Source: a virus (lineage: Duplodnaviria > Heunggongvirae > Uroviricota > Caudoviricetes). From it: a stretch of DNA of 23,561 nt. The DNA lies in the IMG/VR virus record IMGVR_UViG_2721755727_000003. One strand, given 5' to 3'. The notes under the pieces are model-generated. The model was not told the DNA's origin, ran no database searches, and saw nothing but the letters and a program-made list of their open reading frames with translations. The position numbers were made by a program, and so were the translations under genes. Positions 1,239 through 10,184 of this stretch are shown here, piece after piece; the stretch's first letter is position 1, and every line of letters starts with the position of its first letter.

Positions 1239-1814
1239 CTACGGCAGTGCTGGCCATTCAATATCCTGTGCAGTTGACGTATCAACACGGTTCAGCAATA
1301 CCCGATACTTTTTCCATGCTTCCAGCAACGAGATTTCTTCCTCCGTTGCAATTTCCAGATCTGCAGCATCCTGAAGCGGCGCAATATGCTCACTGGCTAC
1401 CTGCATCAGGTTGTTTTTTGTTTCTTCCGCCTCCCGGATCCGGAACAGTTTTTCTGCTTCCGTATCCTTCACCCAGGCTGTGCCGTTCCACTTCTGAAAC
1501 TCCCCTTCCGGCGATAACCAGGTAACATTTTCCGGTAACGGACCGAGTTCAGAAATAAATAACGCGTTGCCGGAAGCCACGTCATAAACCGTTTTACCCC
1601 GATGATCTTCAACGAGATGCCACGATGACTCATCACTGTTGAAAACAGCCACGAAGCCAGCCGGAATATCTGGCGGTGCAATATCGGTACTGTTTGCTGG
1701 CAGACCTGTATGAGGCGGAATATATGCATCACCTTCACCAATAAATTCATTAGTTCCGGCCAGCAGATTATAAATTTTTATGGTCCGTGGTTGTTCACTC
1801 ATTCTGAATGCCAT
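1239..1814 (-). CDS. tfaR: Tail fibre assembly protein, 191 aa
   Basis: Tfa-family sequence ([20 protein letters not shown]...). The ATG (complement of 1812-1814) overlaps the stfR stop codon (complement of 1814-1816). Confidence 0.9.
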
Positions 1815-3163
1815 TATGCAAGCCTCACAATATAGTTAAATGCGATGTTTTTGACGGTGTTTTCCGCGTTACCAGCAGCGTTAACGGTGATGGTGTGTCC
1901 ATGTGAACCAATCGCAACGGAGTGCGTATGAGCACCAATACCGACAGTATGCGCGTGTGCACCTGCGCTTGCAGCAGTGCCGGACAGTGAGTGGGTATGT
2001 GCGCCAGCAGATGATGTTGCATAGTTTTGATTATGCACAACAGACAATCTTGTTGATGCACTACCAGCACCGGAGTTAGCACTAGCCGTGTTCACGTTGG
2101 CTAGTGAGTGTGTGTGTGCTCCAGCCGAGTTTGTAGAGCCGCTCACACTGTGTGTATGTGCCCCGGTGTTATTCGTGGATTTAGTGCCGTAATCAAACGA
2201 CGATGTGGTTTTCGTCCCCAAATCTGTACTGGATGCGCTGGCGCTGTGGGTATGCGATTTAATGCCGTCCTGTTCCTGAGACAATACGGCCCGACCACTG
2301 GCAGGTTTGCCCTTAATCGTCCAGCCACGCATATCAGGGATCACGCCTGACGGATAAGCGGCTGCAAGTTTCGGGTAAGCAGATTTGTCAAAAGCCTGCC
2401 CCTGCATCAGGGCATAACCAGACGGAACGGTATCTGATGGCCACGGGATTGGTGCGCCGACTGGGTAGCTTTCTGGTGGAAGATTTTTCGAGGTATAAAC
2501 TTCTGCCCAGTCTTCCTCAAAACCATAACCGTCTCTTGAAGAACGGTAGAACAGACCACCATTTCTGTAATGCGCCTTCATCTGCAGGGTCCGGCAACTT
2601 CCGACTCCGGTATAGAAGTTAACCAGAATATAGCTGTCGCCAGAGCGGGTGACATTGTAAGCGCCAGATTCGGCATTCCATGGAACGCCACCATCCGCAT
2701 CGGCATATGTATCCGTTGCCCTTCTGGCAAAAGCAGCCACATGCGCGGCGGTTAAAGTAATATCTTTGGAACCATCAAACTCAACACCAGAAACCCGTCT
2801 TGGCGTTTGCAGCTTTGTTGCTGTTAATGCATTACCGTTCAGACTTGCGGACAGTTTGGTTCCAATAACCAGTTCGCCGGTTGCGTTATCAATAGCAAAC
2901 GGTCTTAATGTATTCCAGCCACCATAAACATCACCTTGATTGGTAAGCAGCAGGTAAGTTTTAGCGCCATCATTACGCCATAATGCACCATACTCCCCAC
3001 CTATCATTCGAATCTGATTACCACCACGCGCTACAATTTCGTCTGTGGCAAAAAGTTTTTTGCACGACAAGTTATCGTTAACGATTAACGAATGAGACTC
3101 ATAAAAACCACGCCCACTCTTAAAATCAAGGATAACGTCCGCCGCGATACATTCAGTCGCCGG
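1814..3163 (-). pseudogene. stfR: Side tail fibre gene, 3' segment (about 447 codons), separated from its 5' segment by an IS2 insertion
   Basis: The track ORF 1814..3298 runs 47 codons into IS2. The remaining reading frame joins exactly in phase with the 5' segment once the IS2 and one copy of the 5-bp duplication are removed. C-terminal GAHTHS-type histidine repeats are typical of tail fibre tips. Confidence 0.85.
3159..3163. repeat. IS2 target-site duplication, left copy (GCCGG)
   Basis: GCCGG lies immediately before the IS2 left end and is repeated at 4495..4499 immediately after the right end. Confidence 0.85.
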
Positions 3164-3254
3164 TAGACTGGCCCCCTGAATCTCCAGACAACCAATATCA
3201 CTTAAATAAGTGATAGTCTTAATACTAGTTTTTAGACTAGTCATTGGAGAACAG

Positions 3255-3620
3255 ATGATTGATGTCTTAGGGCCGGAGAAACGCAGACGGCGTACCACAC
3301 AGGAAAAGATCGCAATTGTTCAGCAGAGCTTTGAACCGGGGATGACGGTCTCCCTCGTTGCCCGGCAACATGGTGTAGCAGCCAGCCAGTTATTTCTCTG
3401 GCGTAAGCAATACCAGGAAGGAAGTCTTACTGCTGTCGCCGCCGGAGAACAGGTTGTTCCTGCCTCTGAACTTGCTGCCGCCATGAAGCAGATTAAAGAA
3501 CTCCAGCGCCTGCTCGGCAAGAAAACGATGGAAAATGAACTCCTCAAAGAAGCCGTTGAATATGGACGGGCAAAAAAGTGGATAGCGCACGCGCCCTTAT
3601 TGCCCGGGGATGGGGAGTAA
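3255..3620 (+). CDS. insC: IS2 OrfA (InsC), 121 aa, HTH transposase-regulator
   Basis: ATG at 3255 (the track ORF starts further upstream at 3210 on an alternative start). Protein [24 protein letters not shown]... recognised as IS2 InsC. Confidence 0.88.
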
Positions 3621-4483
3621 GCTTAGTCAGCCGTTGTCTCCGGGTGTCGCGTGCGCAGTTGCACGTCATTCTCAGACGAACCGATGACTGGATGGATGGC
3701 CGCCGCAGTCGTCACACTGATGATACGGATGTGCTTCTCCGTATACACCATGTTATCGGAGAGCTGCCAACGTATGGTTATCGTCGGGTATGGGCGCTGC
3801 TTCGCAGACAGGCAGAACTTGATGGTATGCCTGCGATCAATGCCAAACGTGTTTACCGGATCATGCGCCAGAATGCGCTGTTGCTTGAGCGAAAACCTGC
3901 TGTACCGCCATCGAAACGGGCACATACAGGCAGAGTGGCCGTGAAAGAAAGCAATCAGCGATGGTGCTCTGACGGGTTCGAGTTCTGCTGTGATAACGGA
4001 GAGAGACTGCGTGTCACGTTCGCGCTGGACTGCTGTGATCGTGAGGCACTGCACTGGGCGGTCACTACCGGCGGCTTCAACAGTGAAACAGTACAGGACG
4101 TCATGCTGGGAGCGGTGGAACGCCGCTTCGGCAACGATCTTCCGTCGTCTCCAGTGGAGTGGCTGACGGATAATGGTTCATGCTACCGGGCTAATGAAAC
4201 ACGCCAGTTCGCCCGGATGTTGGGACTTGAACCGAAGAACACGGCGGTGCGGAGTCCGGAGAGTAACGGAATAGCAGAGAGCTTCGTGAAAACGATAAAG
4301 CGTGACTACATCAGTATCATGCCCAAACCAGACGGGTTAACGGCAGCAAAGAACCTTGCAGAGGCGTTCGAGCATTATAACGAATGGCATCCGCATAGTG
4401 CGCTGGGTTATCGCTCGCCACGGGAATATCTGCGGCAGCGGGCTTGTAATGGGTTAAGTGATAACAGATGTCTGGAAATATAG
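3578..4483 (+). CDS. insD: IS2 OrfB (InsD) transposase catalytic domain, 301 aa; normally expressed as an OrfAB fusion by -1 frameshifting
   Basis: DDE-type integrase-core sequence; the GTG at 3578 overlaps the A_AAA_AAG slippery site of insC. Confidence 0.88.
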
Positions 4484-4494
4484 GGGCAAATCCA

Positions 4495-4499
4495 GCCGG
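4495..4499. repeat. IS2 target-site duplication, right copy (GCCGG)
   Basis: Direct repeat of 3159..3163 flanking the IS2. Confidence 0.85.
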
Positions 4500-5107
4500 A
4501 TTTGTTGCCCCAAACTTATAGGTCGTATCATTAACAACGAGATCAGCACCAGGTGCGGATATTGACAGGCCATCTTCAATAAACGCAAAAACAGGGAAAG
4601 CAGCGCCATCAACATAGAACACAGAGCGCAAATCATCGCCCTTATTACTCATCATTATTGAGTGAATGGCTCGTTCATTGTTTTGATATTGCCAGAACAT
4701 GCCATAAGCATAACGCCCCCTGTCAGTCCAGCCACCAGGCATAACAAATCCGTTAAACTCGCAGTTATTCATCGGATCGCCTGCGGTTCGCGTTGCCGTG
4801 GTGATAATGACTCTTGATGCCAGTTCGCTTACTGAGCCAGCAGAACGCATAACAACAACAGGGTAATATTTTCCAGATGTTGCACCTGCAGGAGCGTTAA
4901 CCCGCACATAACGCATACCACGCTTATCAGCAAAGTCTGTTTTACTGACCGCGTTAATGTTGTTCAGGAAGCATCCCTTATCGGGTATATCAGCGCCGTT
5001 CTGGTCTTTCTGCAGACGTTTCTCTGCATTGTCATAGGCTGATTTTACTGCCTTTGGCGTTGCCGCCAGCGTTTCAGACGTACTGTTGGTCGCACTGCTG
5101 AGCTGTA

Positions 5108-6118
5108 CTATCCCCTTTTTCGTCGTACTTGCATCCTCAAGCGCCACGGCGGATGCAATATCCTCTGCCCGTTTAGCTGCTGTCTCGGCGCGCGTTGCCG
5201 CGGATTCCGCCGTACTTTTGCTCTGAGCTGCCGCCGTCGCACTGCCAGCAGCCTCTGTCGCCTTCGTGGATGCCGTCGTGGCGCTGCTCTTCGCTGCTGA
5301 CGCTTGTCTGGTCGCCTCATCTTTTGAAGCAGACGCCGATGATGCCGATGACGCCGCCGAACTGGCTGACGATGCGGCAGCCGTTTTTGAGGATTCTGCG
5401 CTTGTTTCCGACGCTTTCGCGTTCGTTTCGGATGTCTTCGCTGCGGAAGCAGACCTCGCTGCTGCGCTGGCCTGTTCAGTGGCTTCGCCAGCCTTCGTTG
5501 TGGCTGTTGAAGCAGACGATGCGGCGCTTTCTGCCGATTTTCCGGCGGCGGTGGCACTGGCTGAGGCCTGCCCGGCACTTGTTGACGCTGCACTGGCAGA
5601 CGACGCAGCCGCTGTTTTTGAGCCTGCCGCAGCCGAGGCGCTCTGTCCCGCTGCCGTTTCAGAAGACCTGGCGTTCGTCTCGGACGTTTTTGCCGCCTTC
5701 GCGGAATTTCCTGCCGCCGTTGCCGAGGAAGCTGCACTACTGGCGCTTGATGATGCGTTCGTTTCTGATGATTTTGCCGCTTCTTTTGAGGCCGCCGCAT
5801 CCCGGGCCGAGGTCGCAGCTTCTGATGCCTTCGTGGTCGCGGTGGATGCAGATGTGGCTGCTGATTGTAGTGACGCTGAAGCATTCGTTTCTGACGTTTT
5901 CGCCGCACCGGCACTGGTGGCCGCCGCGCTTTTTGAGGACTCTGCAGCGGCAGCACTTTTTGATGCTTCAGTGGCCTTTGTTGATGCCGTTCCTGCGCTG
6001 GAAGACGCTGACTGAGCCGACGACGCGGCCTGTCCGGCTGACGTGCTGGCTGCGCGTGCTGAGTCCGCAGCATCAGCCGCATGGGTTGCCGCCTCACGGG
6101 CTGATGTGCTGGCATCAC
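5108..6118. repeat. Low-complexity Ala/Ser/Thr-rich coding repeats within stfR
   Basis: Reiterated GCN/TCN/ACN codon blocks. These produce the long alternative-frame ORFs in the six-frame track (5108..6118 -, 5195..6289 +, 5266..6015 +). Confidence 0.7.
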
Positions 6119-6523
6119 TGGCTGACTTCTTCGCGGCTGCCGTGTTCTGTGCCACCGCGGACGCGTTACGCGCCACCTCTTCCACCATCAGTTCAAAACG
6201 GCGCAGTGCCTCCGGACGGGCATCATCCTCCGTCATGGCACCGAGAAAATCATTCAGCGTACCGGGTTGAGAATCTTCATACACGGTAATGGTCCCGGCA
6301 TGTGACGGCGGGAATCCTTCCACCAACAGAATAACGCTGTACTGACCGTACTCAACGTCCATGCTGTAACGCCCGGCTTCATCCGGATTTTCTGAGGCCA
6401 GCGTGTTCACCACCACCGTGGTGCTGTTACGTTTTGCTTTCAGCTGGATTGTGCAGTTCTGTACCGGTTTTCCTGTGCCGTCTTTCAGTACACCTGAAAT
6501 CTTTACTGCCATATTCACCCCAC

Positions 6524-6766: not shown

Positions 6767-7962
<1,196 letters not shown>

Positions 7963-8172
7963 CTTGTTGTCAGTTACGCGGAGATAATCCCCGGAGAAAG
8001 TCGACACACGGCTGTAAGCCATACCCGCCATCGCATACGCGCTGAACCATTCATTCACGCGCACAGACGGCCCCACCATCACGCTGAACCAGCGGTTACG
8101 CACGGAATCTTCATGCCAGCGGGTATCGCTGTAACGGGTAAGCTGGCGATTCTTGTCTCCTGCATAGCTGAA
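7963..8172 (-). pseudogene. lomR: lom-family gene, 5' remnant (frame [70 protein letters not shown]); no start codon, N-terminus removed by a deletion
   Basis: My own translation of the minus strand matches lambda Lom residues and continues in phase with the 3' fragment across the IS5 duplication (..TDNK | GKTHD..). Confidence 0.75.
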
Positions 8173-9107
8173 TGGCCGCCCTGCTGCATTAACACCATAA
8201 ATGGCGACTGACCAGTGGACAACCCAACAACAATATCCGTCATTTGTGCAGGCAACATGCGCATAGCAAAAGCCGTTTGTTTTGCCGACATTCCGGTTTT
8301 GCTTAATTGTGATTGAGTAACCTCAAGCTCACTCCGCATAGCACGAAGTTTTCCAGAAAGCTCCTCATACATTTCAGGAGAAAGCATCCCCTTAGCTTTT
8401 GCTTCATTGAGCTGTTTCTGTTGTTCTACCAGACGATTAAAAGCAGTTCCGACAGGATCAAGTTGAGCAATCAGACGTTGCAAAGCAACAACCTGTTCAT
8501 CATGCGCTTTTGCTGCTTCTCGCTCTGCCTGAGCCTCTCCGGTAAGCTCTCGCCGTGTTTCCTGTATTTTTCGGCTATAATTCTCAAACTGAGAACCATT
8601 TATTTTCCCGGATGCAAACGCAGCATTAAGTTCATCATGCTGTTGTTCAAGATTTCTTAGCGCCGCAGCCAGAGGGTCGATCTTGTCCAGCATTCTTTGA
8701 AAGGCCTGAGCCTGCGCTTCCTGCTGAGCGGCAGCAAGTTTTCCGGCCTTCTCGGCTTCTCTCTGCGCTTGCGCAACCCCGCTCAATTCCTCTGTGGTTT
8801 CATTAAGTTTACGGACAAGAAATTCATATTCTTCTTTATCAATAAGCCCTTTATCGAAAAATTTCTTTAATTCAGAATAGCGTCGACCGACAGTATCAAT
8901 TGCGGCACCAACTGGATCAATAGCTGCTTTTAATTTTGCGAGCGCGTTCTTCTCATCTTCTGTTGCCTTAGTCACTTTCCCTGCGCTATTTGCAGCAGTT
9001 TCCCCAGCCTGCGTCATTTTGACTAATGAGGAGGTCAGATTGTCAGCATTATTTTTCGCTCCAGTGCTATCAATAATTATTGCGAGACGCGAGGTTTGCT
9101 CTGCCAT
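8079..9107 (-). CDS. tmpR: Truncated tail tape-measure protein (lambda H-like N-terminal portion); the last ~31 codons are an out-of-frame read-through into the lom remnant
   Basis: Coiled-coil-rich N-terminus and the motif [31 protein letters not shown] resembling lambda gpH; ATG is the complement of 9105-9107, preceded by AGGAG. Confidence 0.75.
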
Positions 9108-9122
9108 TTATTAAAACTCCTG

Positions 9123-9152
9123 ACAACAAAAAACCCACCGCGAAGTGGGTTT
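9123..9152 (-). terminator. Intrinsic terminator candidate immediately upstream of tmpR
   Basis: Minus strand reads AAACCCAC-TTCGCG-GTGGGTTT followed by TTTGTTGTC, ending about 15 nt before the tmpR RBS. Confidence 0.55.
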
Positions 9153-9272
9153 CAGGCGACATAATAGTAGATATAGCGATTACGAGGCCACGCAATGCTT
9201 TTCTCCAGGAGCATCATCGATTTAATTAAAGACACCATCACATCTCTGTAACAGAGTGTACGTAATTAACAA

Positions 9273-9593
9273 CTACACACACTGCTCCTGAAAATACTGG
9301 TCATCCAGTGCAAAGATCACTGCTTCAAATTCATCGCGCTCAATCAATACCGGATGAGTGGCTAAATATTCATTTATCTCTGTCAGAGATAAAGGCAAAG
9401 GCACCCCAGCCATTCCAGCATAACGTCGGGCACGGGATATTACCGAATAGGCGTACAACAACTCCTTAAGCACCGGGTCTATTTCTGGTTCCGGTATCGG
9501 TGGCAACCTGAGTTTTTCTCGCTTCCATCTTGCCTTTTCCCCCCTTTCTCCCCCGAACTCCGATAACCACCGCTGGGCAGCTATGGCTTTTTT
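9273..9593 (-). CDS. -1 frame extension downstream of ydaY (about 104 codons after the slip site); candidate T-part of a G/GT-type tail assembly chaperone fusion
   Basis: Frame is open from 9617 to the stop at 9273-9275 and has no in-frame ATG or GTG before the TTG at 9506. It is entered from the ydaY frame by a -1 shift at A_AAA_AAG (9593..9587, minus strand). It lies directly upstream of the tape-measure gene. Confidence 0.4.
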   Translation of the reverse strand, partial: KKAIAAQRWLSEFGGERGEKARWKREKLRLPPIPEPEIDPVLKELLYAYSVISRARRYAGMAGVPLPLSLTEINEYLATHPVLIERDEFEAVIFALDDQYFQEQCV

Positions 9594-9940
9594 ATCGTAT
9601 CCTGCTTCTGCTGCTCTTTACCCTGGGCGATGCTGGCTGCTTCTGCAAGGATCTGCCAGTACAACTCTGGATTCTGCTTAAGCAGCGCGATCCCTCGTTC
9701 TGCCGTATATTCCAGTGCAACCTCAACACCATTAACCAGTTCACCAACCCCTTTCCAGTCTTTCAGCAGATAACGAGCGGCATTATCAATGAGTAAATCA
9801 TCAACAGAATCCACCTCGGAAACCTTTGAAATATCAAACTCCTTCGTTCCGACGTGCAAACTGGCATCCATTTTCTCAATGTGGCGACGGATTAATGCAT
9901 TACGGGAGCGATACTGATCGTTATCGCTGCTTCTGCTCAT
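9581..9940 (-). CDS. ydaY: Rac prophage protein YdaY (119 aa in the zero frame); candidate G-like tail assembly chaperone
   Basis: ATG is the complement of 9938-9940; the ORF ends ..QDTIKKP with the slippery heptamer three codons before the stop. The start overlaps the ynaK 3' end by 20 bp. Confidence 0.7.
   Translation of the reverse strand: MSRSSDNDQYRSRNALIRRHIEKMDASLHVGTKEFDISKVSEVDSVDDLLIDNAARYLLKDWKGVGELVNGVEVALEYTAERGIALLKQNPELYWQILAEAASIAQGKEQQKQDTIKKP
9587..9593 (-). other. Candidate programmed -1 ribosomal frameshift site (A_AAA_AAG) with an SD-like AGGA 6 nt upstream
   Basis: Minus strand reads GCAGAAGCAGGATACGAT-AAAAAAG-CCATAG. The heptamer is in the zero frame of ydaY (AAA AAG codons) and is identical to the known IS2 slippery site at 3572..3578 in this same window. 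Confidence 0.45.
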
Positions 9941-10184
9941 CCGTCAGGCCAGACAGAACAATGACCGGAACAGAATCCATTTTGAGCATTTCAGCCGCCA
10001 TAACACGACCGTGACCCGCAATAATTTCGCCCTTTTCGTCAATCAGCACCGGATTAGTCCAGCCGAATTGCTTAATACTTTCTACCAGTTGTGCCACCTG
10101 CTCAGTACTGTGCGTCCTGGCGTTGTGCGCATACGGTGACAATTCTTGTAATGGGCGATAGACTATCTTTAATTTCTCGCTCAT
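9921..10184 (-). CDS. ynaK: ParB-like nuclease domain protein, 87 aa
   Basis: Protein MSEKLKIVYRPLQELSPYAHNARTHSTEQ... with ParB/Srx-type N-terminal motif; ATG is the complement of 10182-10184. Confidence 0.8.
   Translation of the reverse strand: MSEKLKIVYRPLQELSPYAHNARTHSTEQVAQLVESIKQFGWTNPVLIDEKGEIIAGHGRVMAAEMLKMDSVPVIVLSGLTDEQKQR

Follow-up and report, generated by a model that had tools for sequence, protein, structure and literature searches.

ydaY of the Rac prophage as a probable decayed tail assembly chaperone pair with a candidate programmed -1 frameshift site

The window analysed here, 23,561 nucleotides (nt) of an IMG/VR virus record (IMGVR_UViG_2721755727_000003), is the Rac cryptic prophage region of an Escherichia coli K-12-type strain. 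Its minus strand carries, in this order, trkG, ynaK, ydaY, tmpR/ynaA and then lomR, the last with an interruption by the insertion sequence (IS) IS5. Comparison of sequences makes it highly likely that ydaY and the reading frame following it are a decayed tail assembly chaperone pair, from which intact relatives express a short and a long product by programmed -1 frameshifting. The use of such frameshifting for the chaperone pair is very probable in these relatives.

The pair would be the Rac prophage counterpart of genes G and T of phage lambda. In an intact module most ribosomes are expected to read ATA AAA AAG CCA and to stop at TAG, giving a short chaperone of 149 amino acids (aa), while a smaller share would slip by one base in the 5' direction on A_AAA_AAG, with re-pairing of the P-site tRNA-Lys from AAA to AAA and of the A-site tRNA from AAG to AAA. 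After slipping, these ribosomes would translate a further 104 codons, now in the -1 frame, and the result would be a fusion of 252 aa (..DTIKK-AIAAQRW..). The lambda case suggests, by analogy, that the N-terminal part common to both products may coat the tape-measure protein and the -1 domain recruit the tail-tube protein, and the heptamer would set the ratio of short product to fusion. In K-12 a deletion of 11.6 kb has taken the head genes, the tube gene and about 33 chaperone codons and left the remainder fused to ynaK behind a fortuitous ATG, and a second deletion has cut the tape-measure gene at about codon 309.

Reading frames, protein families and synteny

The elements of the locus are as follows.

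9940..9581, minus strand: ydaY as annotated, 119 codons plus TAG, a chimeric open reading frame (ORF)
9593..9587, minus strand: slippery heptamer A_AAA_AAG in X_XXY_YYZ phase, candidate site of tandem -1 lysine-tRNA slippage
9581..9583, minus strand: zero-frame TAG stop, two codons 3' of the heptamer, terminus of the short G-like product
9273..9587, minus strand: T-like domain, a -1 frame extension of 104 codons that begins with GCC at 9587 and is closed by the TAG at 9275-9273
9603..9600, minus strand: AGGA, 6 nt 5' of the heptamer, a possible Shine-Dalgarno-like stimulator with a putative role

The zero frame of ydaY ends GAT ACG ATA AAA AAG CCA TAG, and the third base of the ATA codon is the first A of AAAAAAG. 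The -1 frame has a TAA at 9620-9618 and is open from 9617 onward to its stop at 9275-9273, without any ATG or GTG ahead of a TTG at 9506, from which the ORF listing gives an ORF of 77 aa. When the two frames are joined at the heptamer the fusion reads ..DTIKK/AIAAQRW.., and the junction peptide is predicted as ..QDTIKKAIAAQR. The 3' end of ydaY, the position and phase of the heptamer, the extent of the -1 frame with its missing start codons, and the AGGA at 6 nt had all been described in an earlier reading of the window made from the letters alone (here called the sequence-only reading), and re-reading the sequence base for base gave the same result. That reading also took ydaY for an annotated pseudogene, which does not agree with the current annotation of NC_000913.3, where the locus occupies 1425621-1426288 and ydaY is a coding sequence (CDS) named 'putative uncharacterized protein YdaY' and the -1 ORF is unannotated. 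Its product sizes of 119 and about 222 aa have likewise to be replaced, for the intact gene, by 149 and 252 aa.

AAAAAAG occurs 12 times in the window against 8.4 copies expected, and at least 12 copies were found in 9 of 100 shuffled sequences. Its count in the window alone is thus not above chance, and the case therefore rests on homology and on comparison with relatives.

In profile searches YdaY matches PHROG 313, 'tail assembly chaperone', over profile positions 47-149 of 258 with an expectation value (E) of 7e-37. The reconstructed K-12 fusion covers both halves of the same profile (E 1e-41, positions 47-246 of 258), and the intact fusion extends the match further towards the N-terminus (E 8e-51, positions 20-246 of 258). 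All six fusions that were reconstructed, from Escherichia, Klebsiella, Erwinia, Pseudomonas and Acinetobacter, match phrog_313, the best of them with E 7e-61. The -1 part alone matches phrog_1189 (E 1.4e-36), and its residues 31-99 give a hit to Pfam Phage_TAC_18 (PF23812) which, at 20.7 bits (E 4.7e-4) and a gathering threshold of 27 bits, is suggestive only. Homologues of YdaY carry a precomputed assignment to PF27119.1, the model of which is absent from the Pfam copy searched. Both parts are thus assigned to tail assembly chaperone families, which is in line with the proposal of the sequence-only reading that ydaY belongs to a G/GT-type pair. The first product of chaperone pairs has been described as having a spiral tail-assembly-chaperone fold (Pell et al., 2013, as cited in PMC5313236).

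The gene order around the pair points in the same direction. Megablast and blastn found relatives of the segment, with the homology running from position 9932 downstream, in a large number of E. coli prophages as well as in phages that had been induced or isolated. Both phage vB_EcoS-473R12 and E. coli MY732 have the capsid genes followed by genes for the tail terminator and the tail tube, the YdaY homologue, a gap that is unannotated or only fragmentarily annotated, the gene for a tape measure of 1077 aa, and homologues of M, L, K, I and J of lambda. The chaperone pair has the same position in Klebsiella, Erwinia, Pseudomonas and Acinetobacter phages. In intact relatives the two ORFs are thus found between the tube and tape-measure genes, while in K-12 the tube gene is deleted and only the tape-measure side of this synteny is left. 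The first ORF has 149 aa in the intact relatives L001/L002, its ATG (L002 5903) being preceded by GAGG, and it is followed in the intact prophage and phage by the same heptamer, stop and -1 ORF, giving a fusion of 252 aa. A comparison with intact Rac-like prophages, proposed in the sequence-only reading as a check, thus shows that both the two-frame arrangement and the heptamer are kept. The tape-measure fragment downstream of the K-12 pair, tmpR, was also correctly named there (Pfam TMP_2, E 4e-17; phrog_3827, E 2e-102).

The annotation of the intact locus is itself affected. In MY732 (L002 5993-6352, WP_012565075.1) the NCBI pipeline calls a 119-aa 'protein YdaY' from a TTG start, and this length is that of the truncated K-12 ORF, while the real ORF has 149 aa from the ATG at 5903. 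The -1 ORF is either not annotated or appears as a 'hypothetical protein' of 41-46 aa.

Conservation of the heptamer and the change of coding frame

A tblastn search with the intact fusion against 50,697 phage records gave matches in 44 records, with identities as low as about 31%, from Escherichia, Salmonella, Klebsiella, Erwinia, Pseudomonas and Acinetobacter phages, and every full-length match was split in two pieces. IMG/VR, scanned with a pattern built on the alignment of the six fusions, contributed 80 more loci. The 85 loci counted here are those in which both parts were detected, and their identity ranges from 26 to 99%. The second part lies in the -1 frame in all 85. It overlaps the end of the first part and has no conserved start of its own. 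One continuous ORF in the relatives, which the sequence-only reading had named as evidence for a simple indel, was found in 0 of 85.

An in-phase A_AAA_AAG is present at the same aligned position in the overlap in 83 of the 85 loci. In the enterobacterial sequences, which comprise 53 unique segments, the heptamer and the T preceding it are unchanged in all 53, while the synonymous sites beside it vary (ACG ATA, ACC GTA, ACA GTA; CCA, CCT, CCC, TAA). The base before the two lysine codons is always A, even where this needs the isoleucine codon ATA, which is rare in E. coli, and the two lysines are without exception encoded as AAA AAG. The zero-frame stop is not fixed in place: counted from the heptamer's P-site codon, it follows after 2, 3, 9, 27 or 37 codons. 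In a protein alignment the lysine encoded by AAG is invariant across the six fusions, down to 25% identity. The distant Acinetobacter relatives have G_GGA_AAG, the heptamer of lambda, at the homologous lysine, and in one of these phages, vB_AbaS_TRS1 (TRS1), a joined CDS across G_GGA_AAG is already annotated in RefSeq.

Per-site variability was calculated by zero-frame codon position from 67 unique aligned sequences.

Upstream of the heptamer: position 1, 0.01-0.11; position 2, 0.06-0.08; position 3, 0.27-0.34
From +7 nt onward: position 1, 0.04-0.07; position 2, 0.21-0.34; position 3, 0.05-0.12

Position 2 of the zero frame is the third position of the -1 frame, and the wobble peak thus moves to the -1 frame at the heptamer, ahead of any start codon, in keeping with purifying selection on the -1 frame from the shift site onward. 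The first downstream block (+7 to +67) lies entirely 5' of the TTG of K-12. This pattern suggests that translation follows the -1 frame once the heptamer is reached.

Around the conserved heptamer, stimulators of the kind known from other sites are not evident. The 104 nt that begin with the heptamer have a minimum free energy of -25.7 kcal/mol, and shuffled versions average -25.45 (z = -0.08), and RNAalifold on the 53 sequences gave only a 4-bp helix starting inside the heptamer, local z-scores from -1.45 to +0.35 and no conserved pairs. A stem-loop or pseudoknot 5-9 nt past the heptamer, as in dnaX and IS3-type sites, was thus not found. Upstream, CAGGA is invariant in the 53 unique enterobacterial segments. 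It encodes a conserved Gln-Asp/Glu, and the third position of another CAG nearby is equally invariant; a stimulatory role of AGGA is therefore indistinguishable from codon constraint. For the upstream Shine-Dalgarno-like element of dnaX-type sites the optimal spacing is roughly 10-14 nt, and the 6 nt at YdaY is shorter. The YdaY shift site is accordingly treated here as what it seems to be, a bare heptamer without downstream RNA structure. The G-T site of lambda is likewise a bare heptamer, not known to need a downstream RNA structure.

Deletions in the K-12 module

The features flanking the pair in K-12 are given below.

9931/9932: deletion junction between ynaK and the chaperone gene, from the alignment of the junction, with a 2-nt microhomology (AA)
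9921..10184, minus strand: ynaK, upstream partner in the deletion, which keeps the ~87 codons at the 5' end of a ParB/Srx-like gene of 264 aa (Pfam ParB_N, E 2.7e-7)
9130..9153, minus strand: terminator-like hairpin with T-run, GAAACCCAC TTCG GTGGGTTTT, in the gap from the -1 ORF stop to the start codon of the tape-measure gene
8079..9107, minus strand: tmpR/ynaA, tape-measure gene cut at about codon 309 of 1077 and continued by unrelated sequence

In the alignment of the first junction, ParB-like sequence reaches as far as 9931, and the chaperone gene takes over at 9932. Relative to the intact MY732 prophage about 11.56 kb is missing here, comprising the rest of the ParB-like gene (an intact counterpart of ynaK is the 795-nt gene in L088), the terminase, portal, capsid, head-tail and tail-tube genes, and codons 1 to about 33 of the chaperone gene. 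The ATG of ydaY (9940) and the next two to three codons (ATG AGC AGA) are out-of-frame ynaK sequence, and the remainder of the K-12 gene corresponds to about codons 34-149 of the G-like gene. K-12 YdaY has thus lost about 33 N-terminal residues, the conserved ERWF motif among them. The K-12-type junction between ynaK and ydaY is found in 347 of 5426 complete E. coli genomes. In three other Rac-like remnants (P0181, P0183 and P0001) N-termini resembling the small or the large terminase subunit are fused to the chaperone at one and the same residue (..DGLKLLVASSDNDQY). Their junctions are different from that of K-12 and suggest recurrent end-points of deletion or recombination in the 5' part of the gene.

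The intact homologue of tmpR, of 1077 aa, is found in L002. In K-12 the tape-measure homology stops after ..VLMQQGG at about 8170-8180 on the minus strand, where the intact protein continues QLKDMFGG and that of K-12 HSAMQETR... This is a second deletion junction, at which the remainder of the tape-measure gene and the M/L/K/I/J-like genes have been removed and the stump joined to sequence from the lomR side. Between the pair and the tape-measure gene, the terminator-like hairpin lies in a spacer of 165 nt, and the same hairpin sequence is present in intact L002 at 6781-6806. A hairpin of this kind is unusual within a tail operon; in lambda, T overlaps H.

We infer that the K-12 copy of the chaperone pair is a relic, truncated at both ends of the module. 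The sequence-only reading had called it a relic on account of the truncated tape measure, which is right, but it missed the 5' truncation of ydaY. The idea that ydaY is a pseudogene thus holds on other grounds, namely the 5' deletion, and not by the current annotation.

Alternative explanations and relation to known systems

A number of results weigh against reading ydaY and its -1 extension as a chaperone pair expressed by frameshifting. The K-12 ydaY ORF, having no obvious ribosome-binding site of its own, may not be translated at all. The -1 part stays below the gathering threshold of Phage_TAC_18, Pfam-A and NCBIfam gave no family for YdaY in the copies searched, and profiles of G and GT found no match among the sequences of solved structures. 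Lambda GT aligned to the profile of the six fusions with an hhalign probability of 0.1%, that is, without detectable similarity. The AlphaFold2 model of the intact 149-aa protein, made from an alignment of 20 sequences, is poor (predicted local distance difference test 57.3, predicted template modelling score 0.51), and a Foldseek comparison of this low-confidence model with the PDB gave nothing under E = 1, only noise. A third homologue search, made for a deeper alignment, listed only close relatives. Finally, two relatives lack the canonical heptamer, Erwinia phage Gungnir39 having C_GCA_AAG TAA and Pseudomonas phage Aurca01 G_GAA_AAG. These two retain only an A_AAG core, which suggests that they may use single-tRNA slippage on A_AAG, analogous to that reported on CGA_AAG in Bacillus subtilis cdd (reference listed in PMC5009743).

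The -1 ORF could also be a separate gene, translated with no frameshift involved, either from the TTG at 9506 or by ribosomes that re-initiate once they have terminated on ydaY. Gene callers do annotate short 'hypothetical proteins' within it, and the 77-aa ORF from TTG is listed in K-12. The called starts of the -1 ORF differ between genomes, however, with resulting lengths of 60-138 aa; a two-sequence alignment shows that the TTG is CTC in Klebsiella relatives; and there is no ATG or GTG between the heptamer and the TTG. Both the protein conservation (AIAAQRWLSEFGGE.GEKA.W.REKL) and the -1 wobble periodicity begin at the heptamer, 80 nt 5' of the TTG. With the periodicity starting ahead of a TTG that is not conserved, and with scattered called starts, independent initiation or re-initiation is very unlikely.

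Equally unlikely is that the truncated K-12 pair is not dead, and is still expressed and retained for a benefit to the host, for instance by blocking the tail assembly of incoming phages. Both frames and the heptamer are intact in K-12, and the junction is carried by the E. coli genomes counted above. Recent preprints, to judge by their titles, reportedly name tail assembly chaperones among the phage proteins sensed by defence systems. Against this, no ribosome-binding site is recognisable ahead of the borrowed ATG, the N-terminal 33 residues including ERWF are gone, and neither the partner tube protein nor a full-length tape measure remains; carriers are nearly 100% identical, which fits recent common descent and is uninformative on selection. 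A more specific form of the proposal, to which we give a slightly smaller chance still, is that the truncated YdaY and its extension are made in K-12 and its relatives and have been co-opted, either as a chaperone with a dominant-negative effect on the tail assembly of Rac-like siphoviruses that superinfect the cell, or as bait detected by a sensor of a defence system. If so, the heptamer would have been kept because both products are needed.

A change of frame by RNA polymerase slipping on the A6 run, instead of by the ribosome, is improbable to a still higher degree. For slippage of the polymerase to be productive, runs of about 8-9 or more are required, longer than the six A found here. The strict phase and the order AAA AAG reflect constraints of tRNA re-pairing and not of the polymerase, and the homologous sites G_GGA_AAG, G_GAA_AAG and C_GCA_AAG are not homopolymers. 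What speaks for polymerase slippage is the run of six A itself, since homopolymer realignment is used in some IS elements and phages (PMC1088944; PMC5009743).

The least probable alternative, a plain pseudogene in which the gain or loss of one nt in the A-run split, in K-12, what had been one ORF in the ancestor, with the phase of the heptamer a coincidence, fits the decay of Rac with its at least two large deletions in the region and the A-run length variants in some public assemblies (P0186, P0009), but is largely refuted by the absence of a continuous ORF from all 85 loci, viable isolated phages included (Gungnir39, TRS1, Klebsiella phages), by the fixed heptamer amid changing synonymous sites, by the origin of the A-run variants in Logan assemblies with compensating errors, which points to sequencing artefacts, and by the fact that the only continuous variant, on one contig, apparently comes from a deletion between two GCAGAAGCAG repeats.

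That variant, P0182, is a continuous G-T protein of 240 aa (..QILAEA/GYDKKAIAAQRW..) encoded on an E. coli contig, a natural 'fused-only' mutant. The direct repeats from which it apparently arose lie just 5' of the heptamer, at about 9603-9650 on the minus strand.

The chaperone pair with a programmed -1 frameshift, which remains the preferred explanation, has its closest functional and positional counterpart in lambda G/G-T (Levin, Hendrix & Casjens, 1993; Xu, Hendrix & Duda, 2004, 2013, 2014; as summarised in PMC5009743). In both cases the pair lies just 5' of the tape-measure gene and 3' of the major tail gene, a short product and a -1 fusion are made (predicted here), and no obvious downstream RNA stimulator is present. 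The products are of comparable size, 140 and 279 aa in lambda versus 149 and 252 aa in the YdaY family, and the ratio of G to GT in lambda is about 30:1 (PMC5009743). The YdaY family differs from lambda in having A_AAA_AAG instead of G_GGA_AAG, in the 165-nt spacer with its terminator-like hairpin where lambda T overlaps H, in the truncation of the K-12 module at both ends, and in the lack of detectable sequence similarity. The likeness to lambda G/GT put forward in the sequence-only reading thus stands for function and position but not for sequence; with respect to the gpG/gpT sequence families, the YdaY pair is by its sequence an analogue, or too diverged, and not a member. TRS1_18/TRS1_19 of phage TRS1 (PHROG 313) are of the same family in both parts and have the same lysine as the shift point, with 25% identity; the TRS1 site is G_GGA_AAG with the stop 28 codons on, versus A_AAA_AAG with the stop 3 codons on by the same count.

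With dnaX, IS2 and IS911 (IS3 family) the YdaY site shares the identical heptamer and hence, as predicted, the same tandem slippage of tRNA-Lys. Sites in dnaX and the IS3 family depend on a Shine-Dalgarno-like element some 10 nt upstream together with a downstream stem-loop or pseudoknot. The YdaY site has no supported downstream structure, has AGGA at 6 nt, and would serve a different biological role. The designation dnaX/IS2-type, given to it in the sequence-only reading, is thus apt for the heptamer, while stimulators of that type are not evident: the downstream hairpin was not found and AGGA is not separable from codon constraint. The identical heptamer which that reading placed at 3572..3578 is indeed in phase within IS2 orfA.

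3210..3620 (orfA) and 3578..4483 (orfB), plus strand: IS2 copy with in-phase A_AAA_AAG at 3572..3578

This IS2 (3210-4483, plus strand) interrupts the side-tail-fibre gene stfR (ORFs 1814-3298 and 4317-6518, minus strand). In the MG1655 reference stfR is intact, and the source of the window is therefore a K-12-type strain carrying an additional IS2.

In other phages of the family one to four extra small genes follow 3' of the chaperone pair, in Klebsiella (L003 2404-3239), Pseudomonas (L005 2250-3507) and Acinetobacter (L006 2392-3095). They include a gene for a membrane protein in the Klebsiella phage; in TRS1, a relative of the Acinetobacter phage (L007 2126-2854), one encodes a DUF4760 protein. 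In the Klebsiella phage, and probably in the Pseudomonas phage, the extra genes are placed between the pair and the next long tail gene. The position looks like a moron-like insertion slot.

In the literature searched nothing was found on frameshifting or chaperones for ydaY/b1366, and no paper brought the terms "Rac prophage" and "tail assembly chaperone" together; the site may already be listed in Xu et al. (2004) or Gurvich et al. (2003). The arrangement is standard in long-tailed phages and will not surprise a specialist, and the understanding of frameshifting or of tail assembly is unchanged by it. The value of the finding is mainly one of annotation. It defines the exact end-points of the Rac structural-gene deletion, and the YdaY site is a natural A_AAA_AAG without evident stimulators that may be used for measuring basal frameshifting. 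A probable function is given to a K-12 y-gene carried as a 'putative uncharacterized protein' and to an unannotated frame of 104 codons. The same function would apply to the YdaY family across Escherichia, Salmonella, Klebsiella, Citrobacter, Erwinia, Pseudomonas and Acinetobacter phages, including the -1 domain that is now scattered in the databases as 'hypothetical proteins' of arbitrary length.

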